A DNA stretch of 64,000 bases from Escherichia phage vB_EcoM_ESCO47. Within the stretch, counting starts at the first letter, position 1. Every line of letters starts with the position of its first letter. The DNA is taken from the sequence record OM386662.1; one strand, written 5' to 3'. The position numbers and the translations under genes were made by a program. The notes below the pieces were generated by a model that had not been told where the DNA came from, searched no databases, and worked only from the letters and a program-made list of their open reading frames with translations. Below, one piece after another: positions 5,667-61,008 of the stretch.

Positions 5667-5695
5667 GTGTACATGCTTTTAGGATATGTTATTAT
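5667..5695 (+). promoter_or_regulatory. T4-type early promoter
   Basis: GTGTAC -35, 17-nt spacer, TATTAT -10, then AGACCTATC box. Confidence 0.5.
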
Positions 5696-8763: not shown

Positions 8764-8821
8764 TGTACAACCAAGGACGGATGGAGTATAATCATTCTAT
8801 CTTAACCAAGAGGAGAACATT

Positions 8822-16582: not shown

Positions 16583-16876
16583 ATGGGTAAAACTATCCGT
16601 CGTAAAGAATTGACTGTAAAAGATTTTTATTATTCAGGACGCCGTAAAGCACCTGACGGTGTAAGTCAGGATCAAGTTGAAGAAAATATCTTCCGTTCCG
16701 ATAAGTGGAAACGTATGCGCGGAACCAGTTCTGAAGTTAAAAAGCATCAAAGCAGCCTTTTACGAGGCGAAGTAAGAAAATTGAAAAAAGATGTTTACAG
16801 TAAAGAGGATTATGATTATAATACTTCTCATACTGAAGCCAAACGTAAAGCCAATGAATGTTTCAAATACAGTTGA
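16583..16876 (+). CDS. Basic small protein
   Basis: Start MGKTIRRKEL after GAGG; Lys/Arg-rich. Confidence 0.4.
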   Translation: MGKTIRRKELTVKDFYYSGRRKAPDGVSQDQVEENIFRSDKWKRMRGTSSEVKKHQSSLLRGEVRKLKKDVYSKEDYDYNTSHTEAKRKANECFKYS

Positions 16877-20841: not shown

Positions 20842-22526
20842 AATCATTTAAATTAAATCGTGTTCGTTATAAAAATATAATGTCTGTTGGGCAAAATTTT
20901 ATCGATATCCAATTAGATAAAGTCCAAAAGACCTTAATCACAGGTAAAAATGGTGGTGGTAAATCTACGATGTTAGAAGCCATCACTTTTGGACTTTTCG
21001 GCAAACCATTTCGTGATGTTAAGAAAGGACAAATCATTAATAGCACGAACAAGAAAGAGCTCTTAGTTGAGCTTTGGATGGAATTCGATGATAAAAAATA
21101 CTTCATCAAACGAGGTCAAAAGCCCAATATTTTCGAAATCTCCGTTGACGGTGTTCGTCTCGATGAATCTGCCAGCAGTCGTGACTTCCAAGAAGAATTT
21201 GAACGTAGCATCGGAATGTCCTATGCGTCTTTTAAACAAATCGTCGTTCTTGGTACAGCAGGGTATACCCCTTTCATGGCTCTTAGCACCCCAGCTCGTA
21301 GAAAACTTGTCGAAGACCTTTTAGAAGTCGGCACACTCGCTGAAATGGATAAAATCAATAAGTCTCAAGTTCGCGAACTTAATTCCCGGGGGCAAGTTCT
21401 CGATGCCAAGAAAGATGGTGTTATCCAACAAATTAAGATTTATAATGAGAATATCGAACGTCAAAAGAAATTATCCGGTGATAATGTAGCTCGTCTACAG
21501 AATATGTATGATGACCTGGCTAAAGAAGCTCGGTCATTAAAAGCAGAAATCGAAGAAGCTAATGAGCGACTACTTAATATCGTTCTTGACGAAGACCCTA
21601 CTGAGGCATTCAACAAGATAGGACAAGAAGCATTATTGATTAAATCTAAAATTGACTCATATAACAAAGTTATTAAGATGTATCATGACGGCGGTACATG
21701 TCCTACTTGTGCATCACAGTTGCACCAGGGTGATCCTATTGTCTCTAAGATTACCGATAAGCTTCATGAATGTAATCACTCATTCGAGCAACTTACCTGT
21801 CACAGAGATAATCTGAGTGTCCTAGTGGACGAATATAGAGCTAATGTTAAGACTAAACAGGACCTTGCATCTGATATTCGTACCAAGAAACAAGCAATGA
21901 TTGCCACTATTGATAAAGCTAAGAAAGTTAAAGCTGCAATAGAGCAAGCCTCAGCAGAATTTATCGACCATGCCGATGAGATAGCTTTGCTTCAAAAAGA
22001 ACTTGATAAAATCATTAAAACAAAATCGGATATCGTTCTTGAAAAATACCATCGTGGTATTATCACAGATATGTTAAAAGATTCTGGTATTAAAGGTGCT
22101 ATCATTAAAAAATATGTGCCTCTGTTCAACAAGCAGATTAACCATTACCTTAAAATCATGGAAGCTGATTACGTGTTTTCTATTGATGAAGAATTCAATG
22201 AATCTATAAAATCCCGTGGTCGTGAAGATTTTAGTTATGCTTCATTTAGCCAAGGTGAAAAAGCACGTATTGATATCGCTTTATTGTTCACATGGCGAGA
22301 TATTGCTGAAAAGGTTTCTGGTGTTAGAATCAATACATTAATTATGGACGAAGTCATGGATTCCGCGACTGATTCTGAAGGTATTAAAGCTATTTCAACA
22401 ATTCTTAACTCTCTAACCGATGCAAACGTGTTTATAATTAGTCACAGAGACCATGACCCACAAGCTTATGGACAACATCTTCAAATGAGCAAAGTTGGAC
22501 GATTTACTGTAATGAAAGCCTCTTAA
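20838..22526 (+). CDS. 46: Recombination ATPase gp46 (Rad50/SbcC-like)
   Basis: 562 aa; Walker A GKNGGGKST, CPTC zinc hook, C-terminal LIMDEV Walker B. Confidence 0.9.
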   Translation: MKSFKLNRVRYKNIMSVGQNFIDIQLDKVQKTLITGKNGGGKSTMLEAITFGLFGKPFRDVKKGQIINSTNKKELLVELWMEFDDKKYFIKRGQKPNIFEISVDGVRLDESASSRDFQEEFERSIGMSYASFKQIVVLGTAGYTPFMALSTPARRKLVEDLLEVGTLAEMDKINKSQVRELNSRGQVLDAKKDGVIQQIKIYNENIERQKKLSGDNVARLQNMYDDLAKEARSLKAEIEEANERLLNIVLDEDPTEAFNKIGQEALLIKSKIDSYNKVIKMYHDGGTCPTCASQLHQGDPIVSKITDKLHECNHSFEQLTCHRDNLSVLVDEYRANVKTKQDLASDIRTKKQAMIATIDKAKKVKAAIEQASAEFIDHADEIALLQKELDKIIKTKSDIVLEKYHRGIITDMLKDSGIKGAIIKKYVPLFNKQINHYLKIMEADYVFSIDEEFNESIKSRGREDFSYASFSQGEKARIDIALLFTWRDIAEKVSGVRINTLIMDEVMDSATDSEGIKAISTILNSLTDANVFIISHRDHDPQAYGQHLQMSKVGRFTVMKAS

Positions 22527-23239
22527 TGAGGCTTATGTTTACAGTTATCAAAATGCCAACGATGCATATTAGCAGGGATCCCTATTTTATCGCAATGAGG
22601 ACATTTAATTTTCTTGTCCTCTTTTTTCTTTCTGTTAGGATTTGATTTACAGAATTTTATATGCGGCTTTAACGCCGATAACTTAGTAGTTAAGCCACAA
22701 AACGGGCAAGAATCTTCTTTCCAAATTTTCGTGGCCATGGTTTTAATTATTTTATCCTTTGTTTCTTGATCAAGTTTTACTATTTTAGGCGTAGGGCCTT
22801 GTTTACAGTTATCAAAATGCCAACGTCTCATGTTTCCTTCAGTGCCAGTTAAACCGCAGTGTGGACATGTAATCTTTGGTTTATTTTTTGCAGACTCGGA
22901 CATTTTCTTACGAGTTTCAGCAGTGAATTCTTTGTTCTTTTGAACTTCTTGATTCTTACGTCGAAGCCATCCAAATAATTTGTTTTTGCTTCTATCTGCT
23001 TTAGGAGATGAGATAGTCATCATACGAGCAGCATATATTAAAGAGGCATTATCTGGATGGATTTTTACTAGCAGTTGATGTGCCAAATAATGTTCTTCTG
23101 GTGTTAAATCTACTAAGTTTAAAGCATCATCACTTCCACCTAAACATTGTGGTATAATGTAATGACGTTCTGTATAACCATCTAAACTTCTTGATTTAGC
23201 ATTGGTGATAAGCTTTTCGTATATTGAGTTATAATTCAT
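22523..23239 (-). CDS. Free-standing HNH homing endonuclease with three C-terminal zinc-finger-like repeats
   Basis: HYIIPQCLGGSDDALNLVDLTPEEHYLAHQL HNH motif; three CP(H/F)CG...H(F/I)...CK repeats; only sizeable minus-strand gene in the block. Confidence 0.65.
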   Translation of the reverse strand: MNYNSIYEKLITNAKSRSLDGYTERHYIIPQCLGGSDDALNLVDLTPEEHYLAHQLLVKIHPDNASLIYAARMMTISSPKADRSKNKLFGWLRRKNQEVQKNKEFTAETRKKMSESAKNKPKITCPHCGLTGTEGNMRRWHFDNCKQGPTPKIVKLDQETKDKIIKTMATKIWKEDSCPFCGLTTKLSALKPHIKFCKSNPNRKKKEDKKIKCPHCDKIGIPANMHRWHFDNCKHKPH

Positions 23240-23521: not shown

Positions 23522-23938
23522 ATGTTTACTACTGCTAAAGGTTTTACTGCTGCTGATCTGAAAGTTACTTCTATTCGTACTGACGCTAACCCACATAACC
23601 GGAATCGTGTTCGTAAAGCATGGGTCCTGCATTGTGATGATGTAAGCGCTAAGAAACTTCAGTCTCTGCCACAAGAAATTAAATTCATGCTGTATGGTTT
23701 CATTGATAATGATGTTTCCGATAAGTGGATCGAACTAATGCGCAAACATCGTGAAAATGCTATCGCAGCTGGTGGTAAAATGATTCTAGATAAAGATGGT
23801 TCAGAACGATTGGAAGACTTCTATTGTGTAGACTCAAATGACCAACTTATTGCAGCCGGTGAAATTGTAGCTGCTAAGATTCCAGAATATATTGAAACAC
23901 TGCCTGAAGCTATTAAAAAGCAAATGGTTGCTGCATAA
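23522..23938 (+). CDS. rpbA: RNA polymerase-binding protein RpbA
   Basis: Position between 46 and 45 and size as in T4; start chosen at MFTTAKGF. Confidence 0.55.
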   Translation: MFTTAKGFTAADLKVTSIRTDANPHNRNRVRKAWVLHCDDVSAKKLQSLPQEIKFMLYGFIDNDVSDKWIELMRKHRENAIAAGGKMILDKDGSERLEDFYCVDSNDQLIAAGEIVAAKIPEYIETLPEAIKKQMVAA

Positions 23939-23987
23939 TATTTTTGATATAAAATAAACTTCTTGATTTGAATTGAAAGGAAATAAA

Positions 23988-24674
23988 ATGAAACTGACTA
24001 AAGACACCATCGCTATTCTTAAAAACTTTGCTTCCATTAACTCTGGTGTCATGCTTACTCCAGGTAAGTTTATTATGACTCGGGCTATTAACGGAACCAC
24101 ATATGCTGAAGCAACTATTACTGACGAAATTGATTTTGAAGTTGCTCTTTATGACCTTAACAGTTTTTTAAGTATTCTGAGTCTTGTTTCTGATGATGCA
24201 GAAATTTCTATGAATGAAGACGGTAATATTAAAATCGCCGACACTCGTTCTACTGTTTACTGGCCAGCCGCAGACAAGAGTACAATCGTATTCCCTAACA
24301 AACCAATTCAGTTCCCGGTAGCATCGGTTATCACTGAAATTAAAGCTGAAGACCTTCAGCAATTGCTTCGAGTTTCACGTGGACTCCAGATCGATACAAT
24401 TGCTATCACTAATAAAGATGGTAAAATCGTTGTAAATGGTTATAACAAAGTTGAAGACTCTGGTCTTACTCGTCCTAAGTATTCTTTGACTCTGACTGAT
24501 TATGATGGTTCTAATAACTTCAACTTTGTAATCAATATGGCTAACATGAAAATTCAACCAGGCAATTACAAAGTTATGCTCTGGGGAGCTGGTGATAAAG
24601 TTGCAGCCAAGTTCGAAAGCTCTCAAGTTAGTTATGTTATTGCAATGGAAGCTGATTCCACTCACGATTTCTAA
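23988..24674 (+). CDS. 45: Sliding clamp gp45
   Basis: 228 aa from MKLTKDT; same length as T4 gp45. Confidence 0.85.
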   Translation: MKLTKDTIAILKNFASINSGVMLTPGKFIMTRAINGTTYAEATITDEIDFEVALYDLNSFLSILSLVSDDAEISMNEDGNIKIADTRSTVYWPAADKSTIVFPNKPIQFPVASVITEIKAEDLQQLLRVSRGLQIDTIAITNKDGKIVVNGYNKVEDSGLTRPKYSLTLTDYDGSNNFNFVINMANMKIQPGNYKVMLWGAGDKVAAKFESSQVSYVIAMEADSTHDF

Positions 24675-24741
24675 GCTTTACGTTTAATATGTTATGATTT
24701 GGAGGAGAAATCCTCCACTTTTTGATAATGAGGAAAATTAT

Positions 24742-25704
24742 ATGATTACCATCAATTCCAAAGAACACATTCTAGAACAGAAATATCGTCCTTCTTCCAT
24801 TGACGAATGTATTCTGCCTGCGTATGACCATGAAACATTCAAGTCTTTAGTATCTAAAGGAAAACTTCCTCATATTATTTTGCACTCTCCTTCTCCTGGC
24901 ACAGGTAAAACAACCGTAGCAAAAGCATTATGTAATGATATCAATGCAGAAATGATGTTCGTCAACGGTTCTGATTGTAAGATTGATTTTGTGCGTGGCC
25001 CGTTAACTGCATTCGCTCGTTCAGTCTCAATGGAAGGCAAGCCTAAAGTTATTGTTATTGATGAATTTGACCGTAGTGGCCTCGCCGAATCACAACGTCA
25101 CCTTCGTACGTTTATGGAAGAATTCTCTAGTAACTGCTCTATTGTTATTACTGCTAACAACATCGATGGAATTATTGAACCATTACGTAGTCGTTGTCGA
25201 GTTATCGAATTCGGACGTCCAACCGAAGAAGATAAAATCTCAATGATGAAGAAAATGATTCATCGTATGGTTGAAATCTGTAAGAATGAAAATATCGAAA
25301 TCGCTGATATGAAAGTTGTTGCAGCTCTGGTTAAAAAGAACTTCCCGGACTTTCGTCGTACAATCGGTCAATTAGACCAGTACTCGTCTAAAGGTGTTCT
25401 TGATGCTGGTATTTTGTCTATCGTAACTAATGACCGTGGCACGGTCTCTGATGTTATCGAAGCAATGAAGAACAAAGATATCAAACAGCTTCGTGCATTA
25501 GCTCCAAAATACGCTGCAGATTATTCATGGTTCATCGATAAATTAGTTTCAGAATGTTATGACCAAGTTGCACCTGGTAAAAGTATTATTTCGCTTTATG
25601 AAATCGCAGGCGAAAATAATAAGTTTCATGGATTAGCAAGTAATATTGAATTACATGTTATGTATATGCTTCTTCAACTGACCTGTGAACTGACTTGGAA
25701 ATAA
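24742..25704 (+). CDS. 44: Clamp-loader large subunit gp44
   Basis: 320 aa from MITINSKE; Walker [18 protein letters not shown] motif. Confidence 0.85.
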
Positions 25705-25705
25705 T

Positions 25706-26269
25706 ATGAACTTATTCGATGATGACGTCCGGCTTAACGAGCACCAAATTGCATGGAAGTCTAATGACGCTGATGCGATTCAAAAATGTGCTGATATGTT
25801 TAAAGAAAAACCTGAGAATGAATTCTTTAAAATCATTAATGCTATTAATGAAAAGAAATCTATGTCAATTGCTCAGGTCGACTACTCAAAATTTATGGTT
25901 GAGAACTCATTATCCCAGTTCCCAGAATGTATGCCAGCTGTTTACATGATGAACTTAGTCGGTTCTGAATTAAGTGATGAAGCGCACTTCAACTATATGA
26001 TGGCGGCAATTCCGCGCGGTCGTCGATTCTCTAAATGGGCTAAACTAGTCGAAGACACTTCAGAGTTACTAGTTATCAAACTGTTGATGAAACATTACAC
26101 AATCAACATGAATGATGCTACAGAGTATAAGCGGCTCCTTGAAAAAAATAACAAGTTGCCAATAGTCCTTAAAGAACTGAAGGCCATGGTCACTGATGAA
26201 TTTCTCAAAGAAGTTACCAAAAACGTGAAAGAACAAAAACAATTTAAAAAAATAGCATTGGAATGGTAA
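25706..26269 (+). CDS. 62: Clamp-loader small subunit gp62
   Basis: 187 aa, same as T4 gp62; immediately downstream of 44. Confidence 0.8.
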
Positions 26270-26271
26270 AA

Positions 26272-26640
26272 ATGATTGAAATTAAATTGAAGAACCCTGA
26301 AGATTTTCTGAAAGTCAAAGAGACTTTGACCCGTATGGGCATCGCTAATAACAAGGATAAAGTCCTTTACCAGTCTTGTCATATCCTCCAAAAGCAAGGT
26401 AAGTATTATATCGTCCACTTTAAAGAAATGTTGCGTATGGATGGACGTCAGGTTGATATTGACGGTGAAGACTATCAGCGACGTGATTCGATTGCCCAGT
26501 TGCTTGAAGACTGGGGATTGATTGTTATTGAAGACTCTGCTCGTGAAGATCTATTTAGCCTGACTAATAACTTCCGAGTTATCTCTTTTAAACAGAAAGA
26601 TGACTGGACTTTGAAAGCAAAATATACAATTGGTAATTAA
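26272..26640 (+). CDS. regA: Translational repressor RegA
   Basis: 122 aa from MIEIKLKNPEDFLKVKETLTRMGIANNKD, closely matching T4 RegA as I recall it. Confidence 0.85.
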   Translation: MIEIKLKNPEDFLKVKETLTRMGIANNKDKVLYQSCHILQKQGKYYIVHFKEMLRMDGRQVDIDGEDYQRRDSIAQLLEDWGLIVIEDSAREDLFSLTNNFRVISFKQKDDWTLKAKYTIGN

Positions 26641-26645
26641 AGCAA

Positions 26646-26664
26646 TGGGACTTCGGTCCCATTT
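26646..26664 (+). terminator. Rho-independent terminator with TTCG tetraloop
   Basis: TGGGAC-TTCG-GTCCCA then TTT. Confidence 0.55.
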
Positions 26665-30292: not shown

Positions 30293-31978
30293 ATGAAAAA
30301 AGCTGTTATTCTTGGTGCTGGACTGGCAACTCGTTTGTATCCAATAACGCATCATATTCCTAAGGTGCTTGTTAACTATAAACAAGACACTATTCTGAGC
30401 AATTTGTATACAATTTATTCTGATCTTGGCGCAGACGAAATTATTGTAGTAGTTCATTCAAAATTTGCTGAAACTGTTCGAGCTTATTGTGAGCAAGAAG
30501 GGTTCAATGTGACTATTCGTACAGTTGATGAAGCGTATGGATCTGCTTATGCTCTTGCTAAATTACACAAAGATTTAGACGGCCATAATGTAATTGTTAA
30601 CTGGTGTGATATTATTCCTGATTTTGGTTCATGGTCATGGAATGTTAACGCAATCTATGTTAAGGGCGACGAATGTCGATATAATTTCGACGGTGAAAAT
30701 ATCACTAACGTAGGTTCAACAGGTGGTAATGTTGTAGGAATTTATCAGTTCAAAGACTGGGAATTCTATATGGGTTCTACCGATGAGGAAATTCATGAAT
30801 ACTGCAAAGGACGTGATTTCGTAGAATTCCTTTACGGCAGCGCATTCAATAAATCAGAGCTTATGAATCTAATTGATTTAGGTGATATGCCTAAACTTGA
30901 AAAAGCTCATGAAGTTCGTGAACTTAATCGTAGTTTTAATGCAGTTGAAATTGGTGAAGAAACTGTAACTAAATTCGCATTAACCGAACAGGGTCGAGCT
31001 CTTCAGAAAGATGAGATTTCATGGTATCTTAAAGTGAAATCAGATTCAGTTCCTCAGTTAGTTTCTGTTAATGAAAATAACTTTGAAATGGAACGCATTA
31101 AAGGTAGGCCGGCATTTGAATATATTAAATCCAAATCAAGTCTTGCTCGTCCACAAATTGTTGATGCAATTTTAGATGCACTGAAATTCAGCACAGACAC
31201 TTATTTTGTAAGTCCTGAAACTGTTCGTCGTGATTTCACTAAAGAATTCTATACTAAAGTTATTGATCGTTGTGAAAGCATTCAACCATTGATTGATTCA
31301 TTTGGTAAAATCACACATGTGAACTACACCAAGATTGGACGTCTGAAGCCAATGCTGAAACAAGCTTTAGAACACCTTATTCGTTATCATAACCGTTCTC
31401 AGGGACAGTACTCTGTTATTCATGGTGACCCGAACTTCAGTAATACTATGATTACTGATAACGGCGAAGTCAAGTTTATCGACCCTCGTGGATATTTTGG
31501 CGAAACCAAGATTTACGGCCCGAAATTGTATGATGAAGCTAAAGTGCTTTATGCTGTTTCAGGTTATGATGAATTCAATGCTAATCCGACCTGGGGGCAG
31601 TTTACTATTGATGAAACAACTTGTAATGTGTCTATTAACATCAATCCATTAGTTTACAAATATGGAAAGATGAGTTCGTTTAACGAGTATCATCATTTGG
31701 CAGTGGCAATTATCTGGATTGCATTAGGTGGTTATTTCAAGAATAATCCACTTAAAGCGGTAGCCGCATATTATAAAGGTATGGAACTTCTGACTAAGCA
31801 ATTACGTAACATGGGCCGTGTACTTCAGGACGGCTCTATTAGTTATGACGTAGCAGAACCTGTAACGGCTACACTGATTACAAAAAATCCTGGTAAATGG
31901 GTACTAACTGATAAAGAAACTGGTGTTTCCTATCGTCCAATCGGTGGCGATATCACTCATCAATGGGAACGAATCTAA
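30293..31978 (+). CDS. Bifunctional sugar-1-phosphate nucleotidyltransferase (N-terminal) / kinase-like (C-terminal) protein
   Basis: N-terminal AVILGAGLATRLYPIT...PKVLV nucleotidyltransferase signature; C-terminal HGDPNFSNTMI...FIDPRGYF resembles the APH/choline-kinase catalytic loop. Confidence 0.6.
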   Translation: MKKAVILGAGLATRLYPITHHIPKVLVNYKQDTILSNLYTIYSDLGADEIIVVVHSKFAETVRAYCEQEGFNVTIRTVDEAYGSAYALAKLHKDLDGHNVIVNWCDIIPDFGSWSWNVNAIYVKGDECRYNFDGENITNVGSTGGNVVGIYQFKDWEFYMGSTDEEIHEYCKGRDFVEFLYGSAFNKSELMNLIDLGDMPKLEKAHEVRELNRSFNAVEIGEETVTKFALTEQGRALQKDEISWYLKVKSDSVPQLVSVNENNFEMERIKGRPAFEYIKSKSSLARPQIVDAILDALKFSTDTYFVSPETVRRDFTKEFYTKVIDRCESIQPLIDSFGKITHVNYTKIGRLKPMLKQALEHLIRYHNRSQGQYSVIHGDPNFSNTMITDNGEVKFIDPRGYFGETKIYGPKLYDEAKVLYAVSGYDEFNANPTWGQFTIDETTCNVSININPLVYKYGKMSSFNEYHHLAVAIIWIALGGYFKNNPLKAVAAYYKGMELLTKQLRNMGRVLQDGSISYDVAEPVTATLITKNPGKWVLTDKETGVSYRPIGGDITHQWERI

Positions 31979-32421: not shown

Positions 32422-33582
32422 ATGAATACTTTTAAAATCGGAACGAATTTTGATTTAGCTCTTCTTGATAAAATCGTAGAGCTCAATAAAACTTATCCTA
32501 ATAGCTTAATAAACGAAGTATACGGCTCTACAAGAGAAATGGCTTTTGTAGCAGCCAGACCTGATTTTAGGCTTCCTGACGTTGACAAAAAGATGTTAGA
32601 AGATTACGTTAAACGTTGTAACGAATTAGGTATTTGCTTTAACTATACACTCAACACGATAAATCCTGGTTCAAAAAGAGAACTAGTTGAGTGGAAGAAG
32701 AAAGCTATTCAGGATTATGTTCAGTATCTTTGGTCAATAGGCGTATGGCGTATTACTATCGCTAACCCTGTTGTTATGGAAATTGTTCGTGAAGTCAATA
32801 AAGACATTGAGATTGAAGTTTCAACAATTCTACATGTCGATGCTGTAACTCAAATCAAATACTTGCATGACCAATATAATATTAAAAAGGTCTGTTGCGG
32901 AATTCATAAGAACCGTTCAGTTTCTTTCCTGAAGCGTGCAGCAGAGTTTTGCAATAAGAACAATATAATATTTGAAGTTCTTGTAAATGAGTTCTGTTCT
33001 AATGCTGGTAAAGGGTATACAACACATTGTAGTTATCGTGACTCTTGCTATATTTTCCATAGTACTGATGTTACAGTTGATGATGCTAAATCCTTAAACG
33101 GATATCCAATGCAACACTGCATTAAAGCTCGTGATACAGACCCATTTAACTGGTTGAGAACTCGTTTTGTTCGTCCTCAAGATTTGAAACTTTATAATGA
33201 TATTGGTATCACTCAATTCAAAGTTTCAGGACGTACAGGTAGCACAGACTACATTTTGAAAGTTCTTGAAGCATACGCTTCTGAAAAGTTTGAAGGTAAT
33301 TTGTTAGAACTGTGGAAGCCTTTAGAGACTATTTTCACTCTTGAAAATGAAACTGAGTTTTCACATACAGTAAATATTGAAACCTCTTTGTTAGATGGCT
33401 TTTTAGAAAAAAGGTGGTTCAGACATCCAGATTTCGATTGTGCTAATGAAATCTGCGGGACGACGTGTACATATTGTGAAAGATATTATAAACGTCAATT
33501 ATCTAAAAACGGGTTATCAGAAAATTCTATATCTATTATTGATATAACTAACTCTGATGACGCTTTGAGGTACCCGGAATGA
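32422..33582 (+). CDS. Peptidase-U32-family protein (PrtC/RlhA/TrhP/UbiU-like putative Fe-S enzyme)
   Basis: Architecture and blocks ITIANPVVMEIVRE, IEIEVST, IFEVLVNEFCSNAGKGYTTHCSYRDSC parallel the U32 core as I recall it. Confidence 0.5.
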   Translation: MNTFKIGTNFDLALLDKIVELNKTYPNSLINEVYGSTREMAFVAARPDFRLPDVDKKMLEDYVKRCNELGICFNYTLNTINPGSKRELVEWKKKAIQDYVQYLWSIGVWRITIANPVVMEIVREVNKDIEIEVSTILHVDAVTQIKYLHDQYNIKKVCCGIHKNRSVSFLKRAAEFCNKNNIIFEVLVNEFCSNAGKGYTTHCSYRDSCYIFHSTDVTVDDAKSLNGYPMQHCIKARDTDPFNWLRTRFVRPQDLKLYNDIGITQFKVSGRTGSTDYILKVLEAYASEKFEGNLLELWKPLETIFTLENETEFSHTVNIETSLLDGFLEKRWFRHPDFDCANEICGTTCTYCERYYKRQLSKNGLSENSISIIDITNSDDALRYPE

Positions 33583-39090: not shown

Positions 39091-39108
39091 AGGAGACTTC
39101 GGTCTCCT
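39091..39108 (+). terminator. Putative terminator hairpin with TTCG tetraloop
   Basis: AGGAGAC-TTCG-GTCTCCT then TTTCGGGG (weak T-run). Confidence 0.45.
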
Positions 39109-39114
39109 TTCGGG

Positions 39115-40174: not shown

Positions 40175-40423
40175 ATGGAATTATTCGTAGCTAGTTCAGT
40201 AGCAGTTTTAATCGCAGGTATTGGTTCAATCATCATTTACATGTTGCCTTGGGTAATCGCACTTATTCGTGGCACAAAAAGCACAACAGCAATCTTCTTT
40301 GTATCTTTACTCTTTAACTGGACGATGGTTGGTTGGATTGGAACTTTAATTTGGTCTATCGTTGCCAAAAAGAAATCGGCTCAGCAGCCTCAACAAGTAA
40401 TTATTATTCGAGAAAAAGAATAA
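40175..40423 (+). CDS. Small membrane protein
   Basis: Two hydrophobic helices. Confidence 0.45.
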   Translation: MELFVASSVAVLIAGIGSIIIYMLPWVIALIRGTKSTTAIFFVSLLFNWTMVGWIGTLIWSIVAKKKSAQQPQQVIIIREKE

Positions 40424-40427
40424 ACTT

Positions 40428-40458
40428 GTTTACATTATAGATGGACTATAGTATAGTA
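40428..40458 (+). promoter_or_regulatory. T4-type early promoter
   Basis: GTTTAC ... TATAGTAGTCCTATCAA box. Confidence 0.5.
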
Positions 40459-40486
40459 GTCCTATCAAATCAACTAAGGAGATAAA

Positions 40487-42157: not shown

Positions 42158-43180
42158 ATGGCTGAATGGATAGATAATGAATTTGCTTATCGTGCGTTTT
42201 CTCACCTACCTCGTTTTAGACAAATCAATAATTCAAGCACATTTAAATTAACATTTCGTTGTCCAGTTTGTGGCGACTCCCAGACAGATGCAATGAAAGC
42301 CCGCGGTTGGTATTATGGCGGTACTCCTGGCAATGTACATTGTTATAACTGTCAATATCATAATACAATTTCTGGATACTTAAAAGAGTATGATGAAGAG
42401 CTTTATCGCGAATATCTAATGGAAGTTCGTAAAGAAAAAGCTAGAATGGAACCAAAGATTGAAAAGTTTCCTGAAGCTAAGCCGGAACCAGAGAAAAAGA
42501 CTATAAATTCTTTGCCGTCTTGTTCTCGTCTGGACAAGTTGCCTGAAGAGCATCCTATTGTGAAATATGTTAAGTCTCGATGCATTCCTAAAGAATCATG
42601 GAATAGACTATGGTTCACATTAGAATGGCCTAAATTGGTCAACAAGATTCAACCAGGGACATACAAGAAAGAGATTCCTGAACCACGTTTAGTGATTCCT
42701 ATTTTTAATAAAGATGGGAAGGCCGAGTCATTCCAAGGACGTGCACTTCGTAAAGATGCTCCTCAGAAATATATCACTATTAAAGCGTTTGAGACGGCAA
42801 CGAAAATATACGGTGTTGAACGTGTTAAGGAAGGAGATGTCTGGGTAATGGAAGGTCCTATTGATAGTTTATTCATACCCAATTCAATAGCTATTACAGG
42901 CGGCTCGATAGATTTAGATATGGTACCATTTAAAGAACGTCGGGTATGGGTAATGGATAATGAACCTAGGCATCCGGATACTATAGCTCGTATGAAACGT
43001 TTGGTAGATGCAGGCGAACGTGTCATGTTCTGGGATAAAGCTCCATGGAGATCAAAGGATGTGAATGATATGGTAATGAAAGAAAATGCAACACCAAATG
43101 AAATCCTTGAATATATGAAACAGAATATTTCAAGTGGGTTGCATGCTAAAATGAGATTATCTAAATATTCTAAAATTTAG
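42158..43180 (+). CDS. 61: DNA primase gp61
   Basis: 340 aa; N-terminal zinc ribbon CPVCGDS...CYNC; TOPRIM-like core. Confidence 0.85.
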   Translation: MAEWIDNEFAYRAFSHLPRFRQINNSSTFKLTFRCPVCGDSQTDAMKARGWYYGGTPGNVHCYNCQYHNTISGYLKEYDEELYREYLMEVRKEKARMEPKIEKFPEAKPEPEKKTINSLPSCSRLDKLPEEHPIVKYVKSRCIPKESWNRLWFTLEWPKLVNKIQPGTYKKEIPEPRLVIPIFNKDGKAESFQGRALRKDAPQKYITIKAFETATKIYGVERVKEGDVWVMEGPIDSLFIPNSIAITGGSIDLDMVPFKERRVWVMDNEPRHPDTIARMKRLVDAGERVMFWDKAPWRSKDVNDMVMKENATPNEILEYMKQNISSGLHAKMRLSKYSKI

Positions 43181-43374
43181 ACCAATCCTACTAGTGCAAA
43201 AGCAATATCAACTACTGTGTCAAGAGGCACAGAAGGAACGATAATACCGTTAGCAACTAGCAATGGAGCAATACCGAAATTCCAAGAAATGATTCCACCA
43301 ATAACAACAGCGGCTAAAATCGTTTTCTTTTTATGTCCTTTGATAGCGGCGATTAACAACGGTAACTTAAGCAT
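43177..43374 (-). CDS. Small hydrophobic membrane protein (paralog of 43367..43570)
   Basis: Minus-strand ORF with GGAG upstream; sits between 61 and 56 where T4 has dam. Confidence 0.4.
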   Translation of the reverse strand: MLKLPLLIAAIKGHKKKTILAAVVIGGIISWNFGIAPLLVANGIIVPSVPLDTVVDIAFALVGLV

Positions 43375-43570
43375 GCAAATTAACTCCGATTGCTTTGATT
43401 ATTGAAAGTATATGCTGTAACTCCACTTGTGGTAATATAATAGCTTGAGTTGCGGCCAATGGAACTATTACTAGATTCCATACTAAAACGTCCACAGCAA
43501 GAAAAAAGAATATCAACTTACGTGATTCTTTATTTGTTAACTTCCAGATTTGATAGAACACAGTTCCCAT
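43367..43570 (-). CDS. Small hydrophobic membrane protein (paralog of 43177..43374)
   Basis: Strong AGGAGG 5 nt upstream of ATG on minus strand; shares W-N-x-x-I-x-P-L...I-I-x-P-x-V pattern with its neighbour. Confidence 0.45.
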   Translation of the reverse strand: MGTVFYQIWKLTNKESRKLIFFFLAVDVLVWNLVIVPLAATQAIILPQVELQHILSIIKAIGVNLHA

Positions 43571-43658
43571 AAATCCTCCTACGTTATAGGTTTATTTATG
43601 CTTTTTATCAGGTTTGGTATAATTAACATCTCTTAAACATGAATTGAAAGGAAATAAA

Positions 43659-44180
43659 ATGGCGCACTTTAACGAATGTTCACAACTGATTGCTGGTGTT
43701 GATAAAGCTGAAGAAGCTTATTTTAATGCTCTTATTCACGAAGATAAAGACCCGTTGCAGGTAATGCTTGATATGCAGAAATCTTTACAGGTTCGTCTGG
43801 CAAATGACAAGCCTGAACATAACAAACATCCTGATGAATTGGCCACTGCTGGTGAAGTCGTTGATTGGCTACGCAATCAGAAAGATTATATTGACGATGA
43901 ATTCCGTGAACTTCTGACTTCTCTTGGTGGTATGAGCAATGGTGAAAAAGCCGCCAGCAGTGTATGGAAGCCGTGGAAGGCGCAACATGCTGAATATCGA
44001 AATCGTCGTATCGATGAACTGTCTCCTGAAGACCAGCTTGAAATCAAATTTGAAATGATTGATATTCTCCATTTCGTTCTGAATATGTTCCAAGGTCTTG
44101 GTCTTACTGCTGAAGAAATCTTTAAATTGTACTACCTGAAGAACAAACATAATTTTGAACGCCAGGATAATGGATATTAA
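43659..44180 (+). CDS. 56: dCTPase/dUTPase gp56 (MazG-like)
   Basis: 173 aa from MAHFNEC; position between 61 and soc as in T4. Confidence 0.75.
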   Translation: MAHFNECSQLIAGVDKAEEAYFNALIHEDKDPLQVMLDMQKSLQVRLANDKPEHNKHPDELATAGEVVDWLRNQKDYIDDEFRELLTSLGGMSNGEKAASSVWKPWKAQHAEYRNRRIDELSPEDQLEIKFEMIDILHFVLNMFQGLGLTAEEIFKLYYLKNKHNFERQDNGY

Positions 44181-44480: not shown

Positions 44481-44505
44481 AGGAATCCTTCGGGATTCCT
44501 TTTTT
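44481..44505 (+). terminator. Rho-independent terminator with TTCG tetraloop
   Basis: AGGAATCC-TTCG-GGATTCCT then TTTTT. Confidence 0.6.
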
Positions 44506-44515
44506 CGTTTCTACA

Positions 44516-44545
44516 GTTTACATCCTTGTAAAACAGTGTTATAGT
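44516..44545 (+). promoter_or_regulatory. T4-type early promoter
   Basis: GTTTAC, 18-nt spacer, TATAGT, AGTCCTATCAA box, GAGGAG RBS. Confidence 0.55.
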
Positions 44546-44573
44546 AGTCCTATCAAAACAAGAGGAGAACACT

Positions 44574-44789
44574 ATGTTAAATCGTTGGATTAAACCTAAT
44601 CAAACCTTAGATGAAGTTATTGCTCGTCAGGTTATACAGAAATATGATCTTCAACTATGGTATGCTGAAGTTGTTGTGCATTCATTCATGATGCATGCTG
44701 ATGGCTCAGTCGAATTTAATGCAGAAATCCGTAATGATTTTGAAGATGAAGGCCTGCCTAAAGTTGCATTTGTAAGAGGGTTCTTATAA
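44574..44789 (+). CDS. Hypothetical protein
   Basis: 71-aa ORF. Confidence 0.4.
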   Translation: MLNRWIKPNQTLDEVIARQVIQKYDLQLWYAEVVVHSFMMHADGSVEFNAEIRNDFEDEGLPKVAFVRGFL

Positions 44790-46511: not shown

Positions 46512-46596
46512 CAGTTATCCCTCCTTAACGACGTGGTATCCAACTATCACGTCGCCTCTTAGAGTATACATCACTCACAATTTAGCCGAATTTTTA

Positions 46597-46626
46597 GTGT
46601 ACATCCTTAAAGAACAGTGTTACTAT
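46597..46626 (+). promoter_or_regulatory. T4-type early promoter
   Basis: GTGTAC, 18-nt spacer, TACTAT, TCTCCTATCAA box. Confidence 0.5.
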
Positions 46627-46654
46627 TCTCCTATCAACTTCAGGAGAAATCAAA

Positions 46655-47266
46655 ATGTTTTTACCTTATAATGAATGTGAAATTGAAGAAATGGTTCGCC
46701 GAGCACAAGACCCTGTGTTCCAAGAAGACCTGCAATACAAAATTGATGAAGTGTTCAGTGATTCTGAGCAGAGCACTCTTTGGCAGTGCATGGAAAATAA
46801 ACCGGATTGCATTCAACAAGAGTTGGATTCAATCATTCGTAAAAATTGGTCATCTTCTGTGCCAACGGTCCTTTATCGTGGAATTTCTAAGAAAACTCTA
46901 AAAATGTTAGATTCTGTAGGATGTGTAGGAGCTACTATCAAGTTTGACCGAGTAATGAGCTTTAGTTCAGTATTTGGTGTAGCACGTAATTTTGCTTCAC
47001 ACAATTTTTATGGAACTAAACAAATATTCTGTGTTAAGAATGCTCCATTCGCTTTTAACTTCAGAGAAACAATGCTTGACATGATTTTGGCTGCGCCATC
47101 TTGCGAGTTCAGCGGAGCTTTCCCTGAAGCGACTAGACGGTCTAATGTTCGTTTAGTATCTGATGAGTGTGAATTTATGTTCCCGATCGGGACTACACTA
47201 CGTGTAGATTCTGTTACTGAAGAAGGAACTTATCGGATATGGAATCTGTCTATTATCGGTTACTGA
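46655..47266 (+). CDS. ADP-ribosyltransferase, ModA/ModB-like
   Basis: 203 aa; LYRG (Arg motif), FSS, and ECEFMF (ExE) in the order expected for R-S-E ADP-ribosyltransferases; mod position. Confidence 0.55.
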   Translation: MFLPYNECEIEEMVRRAQDPVFQEDLQYKIDEVFSDSEQSTLWQCMENKPDCIQQELDSIIRKNWSSSVPTVLYRGISKKTLKMLDSVGCVGATIKFDRVMSFSSVFGVARNFASHNFYGTKQIFCVKNAPFAFNFRETMLDMILAAPSCEFSGAFPEATRRSNVRLVSDECEFMFPIGTTLRVDSVTEEGTYRIWNLSIIGY

Positions 47267-51106: not shown

Positions 51107-51634
51107 ATGTTAGTTTATCGAGTAGAACGTAGTTTTTGTACCCAAAGAGAATATTTGCCTTCAGTCGGATACGAAAACGGTGAAATGGTTCGTACCTGGG
51201 AGATATCCTGGAATAAAGAACCACGCTCACCTTACGGATGGTCTGGCACCGACAACTCTGAAGAAACCTGGGAATTCCTTGATAAACACGGGATATTGTC
51301 AGGCAACTTCTATCATAACGACGGCAATATAAACGCCCCTAATCGTCCTACAATCAAAAATGATCACCTCTTATCAAAAAATATTTTAAAACAAAATAAC
51401 CTTGATTTCATAGACCAAATAGCTGATTGGTTAGAGACAGGTGAATTTTACTTTGCGTTTGATACGGTCGACACGGTGTACCGATGGTTTGATAACTCCG
51501 ATGACATAGAACTCTTGAAGGCTAAAGGTTACTACATCGCGGTCTATGATGCTCCTGACGTCATTTTAGGCGACTCTCAACTTTTGTTCAAACGTTCTTC
51601 GGCAGAACAAGTTGATTTTATTTTAATAAAATGA
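51107..51634 (+). CDS. Hypothetical protein
   Basis: 175-aa ORF. Confidence 0.45.
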   Translation: MLVYRVERSFCTQREYLPSVGYENGEMVRTWEISWNKEPRSPYGWSGTDNSEETWEFLDKHGILSGNFYHNDGNINAPNRPTIKNDHLLSKNILKQNNLDFIDQIADWLETGEFYFAFDTVDTVYRWFDNSDDIELLKAKGYYIAVYDAPDVILGDSQLLFKRSSAEQVDFILIK

Positions 51635-51663
51635 TGTACAAACTGATAGTATTTTGTTACTAT
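51635..51663 (+). promoter_or_regulatory. T4-type early promoter
   Basis: TGTACA, 17-nt spacer, TACTAT, AGACCTATCAA box, GAGGAG RBS. Confidence 0.5.
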
Positions 51664-51691
51664 AGACCTATCAAAACAAGAGGAGAACATT

Positions 51692-51886
51692 ATGAAAACT
51701 TTATTAACTCAAGATCAATTTGAAGATATCCTTTTCGACCCAGAATTAGTTGTTGTTCAAAAAGAAATTACTAGTGGTCTTGAACACCATTCTTACGTAT
51801 ACGTTTATGAAAATGACAAACCAGTTATGGTTGCAGTACGTCACATCACAGGCGAAGGCACAACTTACTGGAAGGAAGCAATCTAA
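51692..51886 (+). CDS. Hypothetical protein
   Basis: 64-aa ORF. Confidence 0.4.
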
Positions 51887-59408: not shown

Positions 59409-59430
59409 GGGGACTTCGGTCCCCTTTTTT
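59409..59430 (+). terminator. Rho-independent terminator with TTCG tetraloop
   Basis: GGGGAC-TTCG-GTCCCC then TTTTTT. Confidence 0.65.
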
Positions 59431-59748: not shown

Positions 59749-60225
59749 ATGAAGGTAAAGATCGCGGATACAGCCAAGTATTCTCTTAGTCAAGACCCTG
59801 ATCAAATCAAAGAAGACGTAGTTCGTCGTTGTAAGGTTGCAGTCTTTGCCGAGTATGTAGTCGCTAATTGGTTAGATGGATATGTTAATAAAGGCATTGA
59901 AGATGTTGAAGACCCTTACACGTATGCATGGGATGTTCTAGCTCATCCTAAATACTGTGGATTGCGTGTAGAAGTCAAGACTCATCAGATGGACTCACGT
60001 TGGATTTCAGTCACTACAGGATATAGTGGCGATTATCCGGGTGGTAATGGAATCAATATAGGGCCCTTCTTGAATCATCGAGTCGCAGATTGCATTATTA
60101 TATTAAATGCCAAAGAAACCTCACCTGACGTCTTCTCTTATTCTATAAAGTTCGCGGGAGACCATGAAGACCTAAAGAAAATCGTCCGCAAGAGCAACTA
60201 CAACGGGTGGTATCTTCATCTTTAA
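59749..60225 (+). CDS. Hypothetical protein in the T4 denB position
   Basis: ATG 59749 follows upstream stop; ORF-track 59644 start overlaps previous gene; positional only. Confidence 0.35.
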   Translation: MKVKIADTAKYSLSQDPDQIKEDVVRRCKVAVFAEYVVANWLDGYVNKGIEDVEDPYTYAWDVLAHPKYCGLRVEVKTHQMDSRWISVTTGYSGDYPGGNGINIGPFLNHRVADCIIILNAKETSPDVFSYSIKFAGDHEDLKKIVRKSNYNGWYLHL

Positions 60226-60237
60226 TTTCATAAAAGT

Positions 60238-60268
60238 GTTTACAGCTAAGTAGGACTATGATATAGTA
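60238..60268 (+). promoter_or_regulatory. T4-type early promoter
   Basis: GTTTAC ... TATAGTAGTCCTATC box, GGAGG RBS. Confidence 0.5.
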
Positions 60269-60293
60269 GTCCTATCTAAAGGAGGATAACATC

Positions 60294-60557: not shown

Positions 60558-60749
60558 GCTCTAAAATGTGGATAGGAATATGGTTGCTTAGTATCCCAAT
60601 GATTTGTATAATATTTTCAATTGCATTGAGGTACTTATGAAAAATGCACTTCTTATTGTACTAAGAACAATTTGTGATACGGGTTTTTACATTGCATGTT
60701 CGTTCACTGGAACATGGTTGGCTTTAACATATTTTAATGTAATTTAATT

Positions 60750-60780
60750 GTTTACATCAAGGTAGGATTATGGTATAGTA
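60750..60780 (+). promoter_or_regulatory. T4-type early promoter
   Basis: GTTTAC ... TATAGTAGTCCTATCAA box. Confidence 0.5.
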
Positions 60781-60807
60781 GTCCTATCAAAATATGAGGA
60801 ACACAAA

Positions 60808-61008
60808 ATGACTAAGCTTTTTAAAGATGTTGAAATTGGTGAAAAATTTGTCCTGAATAATGGTCAGCAGCTTATTCGTGTAGCTTCTATAGCCGGACAA
60901 ACTCATAACTGCATCGCCCCGACGTATTGGACCCGATTCTTTATTGAGGATGACACCGAATGTTTAACTGTTGAAGAGCTTTTTGAACGTTCTGATATAA
61001 CCGAATAA
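60808..61008 (+). CDS. Hypothetical protein
   Basis: 66-aa ORF. Confidence 0.4.
   Translation: MTKLFKDVEIGEKFVLNNGQQLIRVASIAGQTHNCIAPTYWTRFFIEDDTECLTVEELFERSDITE

Follow-up and report, generated by a model that had tools for sequence, protein, structure and literature searches.

The DNA analysed here, referred to as the window throughout, is a stretch of 64 kb from a T4-like phage with roughly 88% nucleotide identity to Mosigvirus (the RB69 group) around gene 45. Gene 45 (23988–24674, + strand) encodes the sliding clamp, or DNA polymerase processivity factor (phrog_223, E=1.5e-85), and its product is 94.7% identical in amino acids to gp45 of RB69 and 76.8% to gp45 of T4. Gene 56 (43659–44180, + strand) encodes a dCTPase/dUTPase, an NTP pyrophosphohydrolase (phrog_173, E=7.5e-46), whose relatives carry the annotation dCTP pyrophosphatase. 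The translational repressor RegA is encoded 2.3 kb downstream of gene 45 (26272–26640, + strand; phrog_242, E=8e-60) in an ORF that opens at 26263, the ATG at 26272 being the likely start. The gene orders rpbA-45-44-62-regA-43 and 61-(two small minus-strand ORFs)-56 are those of T4.

Several further features of the two regions were recorded. The longest ORF of gene 44 spans 24694–25704, its clamp-loader PHROG match begins at residue 17 of that ORF, and the ATG at 24742, in line with the gene 44 starts of RB69 and T4, follows a strong Shine-Dalgarno (SD) sequence, GAGGAAAATTAT. Position 24742 is thus most likely the true start of gene 44, with GAGGAAAATTATATG (24730–24744, + strand) as its translation-initiation region, the orthologue of the RegA target at RB69 gene 44. 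The two minus-strand ORFs upstream of gene 56 (43177–43374 and 43367–43570; 65 and 67 aa) adjoin, both match phrog_2024 and are weakly alike (35% over 31 aa, E=6e-6); only one phrog_2024-type ORF lies between genes 61 and 56 of T4 and RB69, and the pair probably arose by tandem duplication long ago. A 238-aa ORF (22523–23239, − strand) in the interval from gene 46 to 45.2, the site of an annotated homing endonuclease in relatives, contains an internal direct repeat at 22536 and 22800 (26 nt exact, 73% over 77 nt) and gives a weak zinc-ribbon Pfam match below the model cutoff. Just downstream of gene 43 lies a 561-aa ORF (30293–31978, + strand) with an N-terminal nucleotidyl-transferase domain (PF00483, E=8.6e-10) and no counterpart at that position in T4; speculatively, it may help to make sugar nucleotides with which the DNA is hypermodified, as happens in RB69-group phages. 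Hairpins of the GGGACTTCGGTCCC type, in which a UUCG loop is followed by T runs, stand after regA (26647–26664) and at two other gene ends (39093–39110 and 59410–59427) and are probably intrinsic terminators or stabilising stem-loops.

An exact search of the window confirmed the original prediction that genes 45 and 56 share an identical 22-nt leader ending in the ATG of each gene. The sequence TGAATTGAAAGGAAATAAAATG occurs exactly twice, at 23969–23990 and 43640–43661, both on the + strand, and no further match was found in the window even when 3 mismatches were allowed. In each copy the start codon forms the 3' end. The identity ends sharply, with t before the repeat at gene 45 and a at gene 56 and with AAACTG and GCGCAC, respectively, as the bases that follow; no homology between the two leaders was found beyond the 22 nt. 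From 5' to 3' the 22-mer consists of an A/U-rich upstream tract, UGAAUUGA, the SD sequence AAGGA (23977–23981 and 43648–43652), a 7-nt A-rich spacer and the AUG (23988–23990 and 43659–43661), and the RegA-type motif GAAAUA lies at 23980–23985 and 43651–43656 (all + strand). It has A or T at 17 of its 22 bases, contains no C and makes up the 5' half of the 30S binding site, or ribosome-binding site. The match is beyond chance when compared with random sequence, as 100 dinucleotide-preserving shuffles of the window returned 0 matches, a comparison that leaves aside that both copies are ribosome-binding sites, for which other ribosome-binding sites are the proper background.

Both leaders were predicted to be unstructured. 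Minimum free energies ranged from 0 to −3.1 kcal/mol, with z-scores of +0.6 to +1.6 against shuffled sequences, and a functional RNA structure was rejected on the grounds that the shuffles fold better than either leader. An upstream mini-ORF (ATG/TTG-AAT-TGA) that many leaders of the two genes contain and an in-frame TTG five codons upstream of the start (ORFs 23973 and 43644) were set aside, as neither is preceded by an SD sequence and base composition accounts for the A/T in first position. A full sigma-70 promoter over the leaders was also rejected, no −35/−10 pair overlapping the leader having been found at either site.

Repetition of leader DNA is found elsewhere in the window as well. 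Six exact repeats of at least 22 nt are present, five of them in promoter or leader DNA, and an identical 24-nt leader, CAAGAGGAGAACATTATGAAAACT, at 8807 and 51677 is part of repeated early-promoter cassettes. These cassettes, 60–78 nt long and of the form GTTTACA...TATAGTAGTCCTATCAAA...GAGGAGAACA..ATG, lie at 2917–2994, 40411–40470, 44499–44576, 46580–46657, 51617–51694, 60221–60280 and 60733–60810, and a shorter family is found at 5686, 7162, 16110, 39135, 39707 and 51071. They resemble the extended T4 early-promoter consensus and the mobile regulatory cassettes known from T4-type phages. In some cassette pairs the leaders are identical over 20–24 nt, so that reuse of regulatory modules is normal in this genome.

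Within the window the gene 45 and gene 56 leaders nevertheless form a pair of their own. The 15-nt core TGAATTGAAAGGAAA, searched with up to 2 mismatches, was found at these two genes only within the 64 kb, and a loose version of the motif was carried by none of the 82 other predicted leaders. Gene 43 (26723) and a gene for a glutaredoxin (10486) also have the SD sequence and spacer, written as GAAAGGAAA(A/T)A(A/T)AATG. It is the upstream part of the leader, and not the SD sequence with its spacer, that sets genes 45 and 56 apart. These counts bear on the main rival to a regulatory reading, a purely generic strong ribosome-binding site, in which genes with high early expression have converged on, or retained, an optimal purine-rich unstructured leader with no trans-acting factor, and the 22-nt identity has no regulatory meaning. 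The recurrence of the SD sequence and spacer at other genes speaks for it, as does the exact 15-mer serving as ribosome-binding site of unrelated ORFs in unrelated phages (34 of 119 IMG/VR matches) and the free variation of the spacer among relatives, and generic fitness of this kind could account for much of the leader conservation. We consider it unlikely as the whole explanation. The upstream box is missing from all 82 other leaders yet is kept at the same two genes over many genera, which is not predicted by pure convergence on strength of the ribosome-binding site, and experiments have established gene 45 as a RegA target in both T4 and RB69 (PMC3014915).

The extent of this conservation was evaluated by comparison of the leaders of genes 45 and 56 across relatives. 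T4 carries the box at both genes, as TTGAATTGAAGGAAATTACATG at gene 45 and TGAATTGAAAGGAAAACTAATG at gene 56 (extended leaders ...catTTGAATTGAAGGAAATTACATG and ...taaTGAATTGAAAGGAAAACTAATG), and so does RB69, as TTGAATTGtctTGAAAGGAAATAAAATG and TGAATTGAAAGGAAAAATAATG (extended leaders cTTTGAATTGtctTGAAAGGAAATAAAATG and tacTGAATTGAAAGGAAAAATAATG). When 40 kb of T4 was searched with the 15-mer at up to 2 mismatches only gene 56 was found, the T4 gene 45 leader being a form with a 1-nt deletion. The pairs of leaders taken from 14 further genomes fall into the same motif family, as do the gene 45 leaders of Karamvirus, Gelderlandvirus, Dhakavirus, Tegunavirus, Marfavirus, Roskildevirus and Klebsiella phages. 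The family consensus is roughly U[G/U]A[A/U]UUGA(A/U)AAGG(A/U)A. Of the unique leaders of relatives, 23 of 38 at gene 56 and 9 of 21 at gene 45 contain the loose motif. The T4 gene 44 leader, TTGAATGAGGAAATTATG, belongs to the family in shortened form. Among relatives the spacer varies freely, and the box stands at a fixed distance from the SD sequence. Among environmental phages whose gp45 is only about 35% identical, AAUUUGAAAAGGAAA precedes gene 45 in a sample partly selected for AAGG; the matches listed by the gp45-alignment search for related loci are distant marine relatives.

Conservation of the motif family does not extend to the exact 22-mer. Before gene 56 the 22-mer is found in Dhakavirus NC-G and in 5 IMG/VR contigs (gp56 about 66–69% identical), and every IMG/VR match to it stands before this gene. 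Before gene 45 it was found in 0 of 21 unique leaders of relatives and in no sequence from IMG/VR, INPHARED or the JGI metagenomes, and the full 22-mer at gene 45 is thus limited to this phage among the genomes examined. The last 17 nt of the gene 45 leader, TGAAAGGAAATAAAATG, are those of the RB69 gene 45 leader. The check for conservation of both copies in relatives that had been proposed with the original prediction therefore came out differently for the two levels: perfect identity at both genes is not conserved, while the motif family is kept at both. The window itself looks mosaic. The gene 56 leader region (43560–43790) is 96.5% identical to Dhakavirus NC-G and only about 83–89% identical to other phages, and the gene 45 region (23850–24110) has its best identity, about 84–88%, to Mosigvirus, unlike NC-G.

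A recent intragenomic recombination or gene conversion event, copying one leader onto the other, had been put forward as the alternative source of the identity. It would account for the perfect match over 22 nt, for the occurrence of the full 22-mer at gene 45 in this phage alone among all genomes examined, and for the observation that in the closest relatives, Mosigvirus and RB69, the gene 45 box carries an additional TCT(TG) and the spacer at gene 56 differs. Against this, the gene 56 copy with about 100 nt of flank is 96.5% identical to that of NC-G, a phage whose own gene 45 leader, TTTGACTTGATAAGGAAACATTATG, is unlike that of the window and unrelated to it in detail. At gene 45, in turn, 17 nt of the copy are common to RB69, and T4 has an uninterrupted TTGAATTGAAGG. 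With separate orthologues for the two copies, each descends from its own orthologue. In order to compare leaders within and between genomes we calculated the mean local-alignment score of gene 45 against gene 56 leaders for 16 genomes; leaders of one genome scored 12.3 and leaders of different genomes 11.6 (permutation p=0.11). The gene 45 leader of the window aligns over more bases with the gene 56 leader of a distant 177-kb contig (score 22) than with the gene 56 leader of the window (score 19), and no flanking homology is seen outside the 22 nt. The marks of a gene-conversion tract, copies closer to each other than to their orthologues and homology in the flanks, are thus missing, as there are close orthologues, no excess within genomes and no identity of the flanks. 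A short conversion tract at one leader is formally conceivable and is disfavoured, and recent recombination as a whole was not borne out and appears very improbable. The perfect match is better read, from these alignments, as two conserved leaders that coincide in the same variant than as evidence of transfer.

The position of the 22-mer within the transcripts was considered with T4 as reference, in which middle promoters have been mapped with starts at 32626 for P45 and 16813 for P56/69 (PMC2988021 Table 1). In T4 RefSeq coordinates these starts lie 23 and 28 nt before the ATGs, so that the transcripts begin UCAUUUGAAUUGAAGGAAAUUACAUG (P45) and ACUUAUUAAUGAAUUGAAAGGAAAACUAAUG (P56/69) and the 5'UTRs are UCAUUUGAAUUGAAGGAAAUUAC (gene 45) and ACUUAUUAAUGAAUUGAAAGGAAAACUA (gene 56). 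With UTRs of 23 and 28 nt the box amounts to almost the entire 5'UTR of these middle-mode mRNAs. The MotA box has the consensus (a/t)(a/t)(a/t)TGCTTtA and lies 12 ± 1 bp before a good −10 element, TAtaaT, and MotA tolerates deviations in the box (PMC2988021). A putative MotA-dependent middle promoter precedes gene 56 of the window (43596–43623, + strand), composed of the MotA box TTATGCTTTT, a 12-bp spacer and the −10 element TATAAT (43618–43623); it is homologous to T4 P56/69 and predicts a transcript start near 43630 and a 5'UTR of about 29 nt. Gene 45 is preceded by a putative weaker middle promoter (23928–23953, + strand), in which the MotA-like TTGCTGCA (23928–23935), sitting inside the end of rpbA, is followed by a 12-bp spacer and the −10 element TATAAA (23948–23953), with a predicted transcript start near 23960 and a 5'UTR of about 28 nt. 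The middle-promoter pattern is thus complete at gene 56 and partial at gene 45. The distances from −10 to ATG are 35 and 34 nt for genes 56 and 45, respectively.

This arrangement raises the alternative that the box serves transcription or replication, either as the initial transcribed sequence of MotA middle promoters or, at gene 56, as part of the oriA RNA primer or R-loop. In T4 the box does cover roughly +5 to +24 of the transcripts mapped for P45 and P56/69, and the T4 RefSeq entry (NC_000866) has oriA at 16763, within gene 56 by 22 nt, and gives the transcript of this gene as the primer RNA; evidence has been cited for a MotA-dependent transcript priming oriA (PMC3016281). The T4 oriA position would correspond to about 43680 in the window. 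In several relatives, however, the gene 56 box directly follows the upstream coding region with no promoter-like sequence between, which favours a role at the level of the mRNA over one at the level of the promoter, and the distance of the box is fixed to the SD sequence and not to the −10 element, from which it varies between 11 and 16 nt. As for replication, no origin has been mapped at gene 45, oriC lies elsewhere and the T4 origins have no sequence motif in common (PMC3016281). A replication-origin element was therefore kept as a minor rival only and would concern the gene 56 copy at most; taken together, a transcription or replication role seems improbable.

A post-transcriptional role for the leader was evaluated from what is described for RegA. 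This protein represses about 30 mRNAs, including those of genes 44, 45, rIIB and dexA of T4/RB69, through sites that overlap the AUG or lie just 5' of it and that are A+U-rich, unstructured and without a clear consensus (PMC3014915). The T4 gene 44 leader is a well-studied RegA operator, and on RB69 gene 44 and gene 45 mRNAs the RB69 protein protects the stretch from SD to AUG, the footprint being given in review as the SD-AUG spacer only (PMC3014915). SELEX yielded the consensus aaAAUUGUUAUGUAA, which includes AAUUG, for T4 RegA and the product AAUAAUAAUAAnA for RB69 RegA (PMC3014915). RegA of the window aligns over its full length with T4 RegA (PDB 1REG, E=8.6e-58), and the positions of helix-A K14/T18/R21, W81 and F106, which are named as RNA-binding residues (PMC3014915), are conserved in the alignment. 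RB69 and the window have the same gene 45 spacer, GGAAAUAAAAUG, and the 22-mer of the window reads the same at gene 56 as at gene 45. Sengupta et al. in 2001 reportedly found the protected bases to be GAAAUA at −8 to −3 for gene 45 and GAAAAUU at −9 to −3 for gene 44. Both motifs stand at the same positions before genes 45 and 44 of the window.

The two leaders thus have the position of RegA operators, each ending in the ATG with the SD sequence 7 nt upstream, and their composition, with A or T at 17/22 bases and folding weaker than that of most shuffles; a cognate regA with conserved RNA-binding positions is present in the genome. The link to a footprinted target is direct at gene 45, where 17 nt are identical to RB69, and at gene 56 goes through the identity to the gene 45 copy only. 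The suggestion of a shared RegA operator accordingly proved plausible, more strongly so for gene 45. RegA control of gene 45 in this phage would be well founded by orthology to RB69, and control of gene 56 is probable, a reasonable inference from the same nucleotides and the intact regA. No statement on RegA control of gene 56 was found in the texts that could be read. The dCTPase probably belongs to the regA-sensitive set. SD-spacers of the GGAAAU type were tallied at roughly 17 of 84 predicted leaders in the window and are thus not specific to genes 45 and 56. With such spacers common in this phage, recognition by RegA would not need 22 identical bases, and it neither requires nor explains the shared upstream UGAAUUGA.

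Taken together, we consider it probable that the 22-mer is a conserved, unstructured and strong translation-initiation region that doubles as a RegA operator and places the clamp and the dCTPase under common control. The leader type would have been inherited separately at gene 45 and gene 56 across the Tevenvirinae, T4 and RB69 included, and both copies in this phage would happen to hold the same consensus variant, giving the perfect 22-nt match. As nearly the whole of the short 5'UTR of the gene 45 and gene 56 middle-mode mRNAs, the unstructured leader would recruit 30S subunits efficiently early in infection. RegA, as it accumulates, would bind GAAAUA(AA) between SD and AUG and compete with the ribosome, and its binding would shut off clamp and dCTPase synthesis together. 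The sequence facts, the gene identities, the conservation pattern, the predicted lack of structure and the intact regA on which this proposal draws are observed, and RegA binding to the gene 45 and gene 56 leaders of this phage, the transcript starts and any role of UGAAUUGA are what we infer from them. The leader is probably a conserved initiation leader of known kind, with gene 56 as an additional RegA-controlled member.

What this explanation leaves mildly unexplained is the gene-specific and deeply conserved UGAAUUGA box upstream of the SD sequence. The box (consensus U[G/U]A[A/U]UUGA, just 5' of AAGG) might be a distinct cis element of clamp and dCTPase mRNAs that acts beyond the mapped RegA footprint and has been kept throughout Tevenvirinae history, an idea that we put forward tentatively and hold to be rather doubtful. 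It could provide a second RegA contact, the T4 SELEX consensus containing AAUUG; it could act from the 5' end of the very short middle-mode leaders on ribosome recruitment or stability; or it could be the site for a further RNA-binding factor that co-regulates replication-fork and nucleotide-pool proteins.

If the preferred reading of a shared initiation region and RegA operator is true, the synthesis of gp45 and gp56 is tied together, and to RegA, through a common initiation region, which would make an example of post-transcriptional coordination of replisome and nucleotide-pool proteins. The current picture of T4 gene regulation is left unchanged by the finding and its practical points are modest. 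The gene 56 leader is a good candidate RegA target, the identical leader pair forms a natural control that separates effects of the operator from those of coding context, and the conserved UGAAUUGA box is a defined sequence for mutation.

The leaders can be set against four known systems. One is formed by the RegA operators of T4 and RB69, to which the window sites correspond in lying at or just 5' of the AUG, in being A+U-rich and unstructured with an A tract, and in their setting, as regA of the window belongs to the same replication gene cluster and the gene 45 leader is orthologous to the RB69 target. They differ in that no clear consensus is described for RegA operators, whereas two candidate targets are here identical over 22 nt, and in that the shared UGAAUUGA falls outside the SD-AUG region protected by RB69 RegA. 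The T4 middle promoters P45 and P56/69 are matched by a MotA box, 12-bp spacer and −10 element directly upstream of both window genes; the gene 45 box, however, reads TGCTGCA and not TGCTTtA, the starts in the window are predicted, and the 22-mer itself lies downstream of the promoter elements. With T4 oriA the likeness is that the gene 56 copy falls in the region homologous to the oriA primer transcript, but only one of the two copies is concerned and T4 origins share no motif (PMC3016281). The repeated early-promoter cassettes of T4-type phages offer a final comparison, as the window holds other leader pairs identical over 20–24 nt. Mobile regulatory cassettes (PeSL) of T4-type phages are said to have been described by Arbiol, Comeau and Krisch in 2010. 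The cassettes of the window contain a full sigma-70 early promoter, are similar over 60–78 nt and precede small accessory ORFs, whereas the identity between genes 45 and 56 covers only 22 nt, has no similarity in its flanks and stands before core genes.
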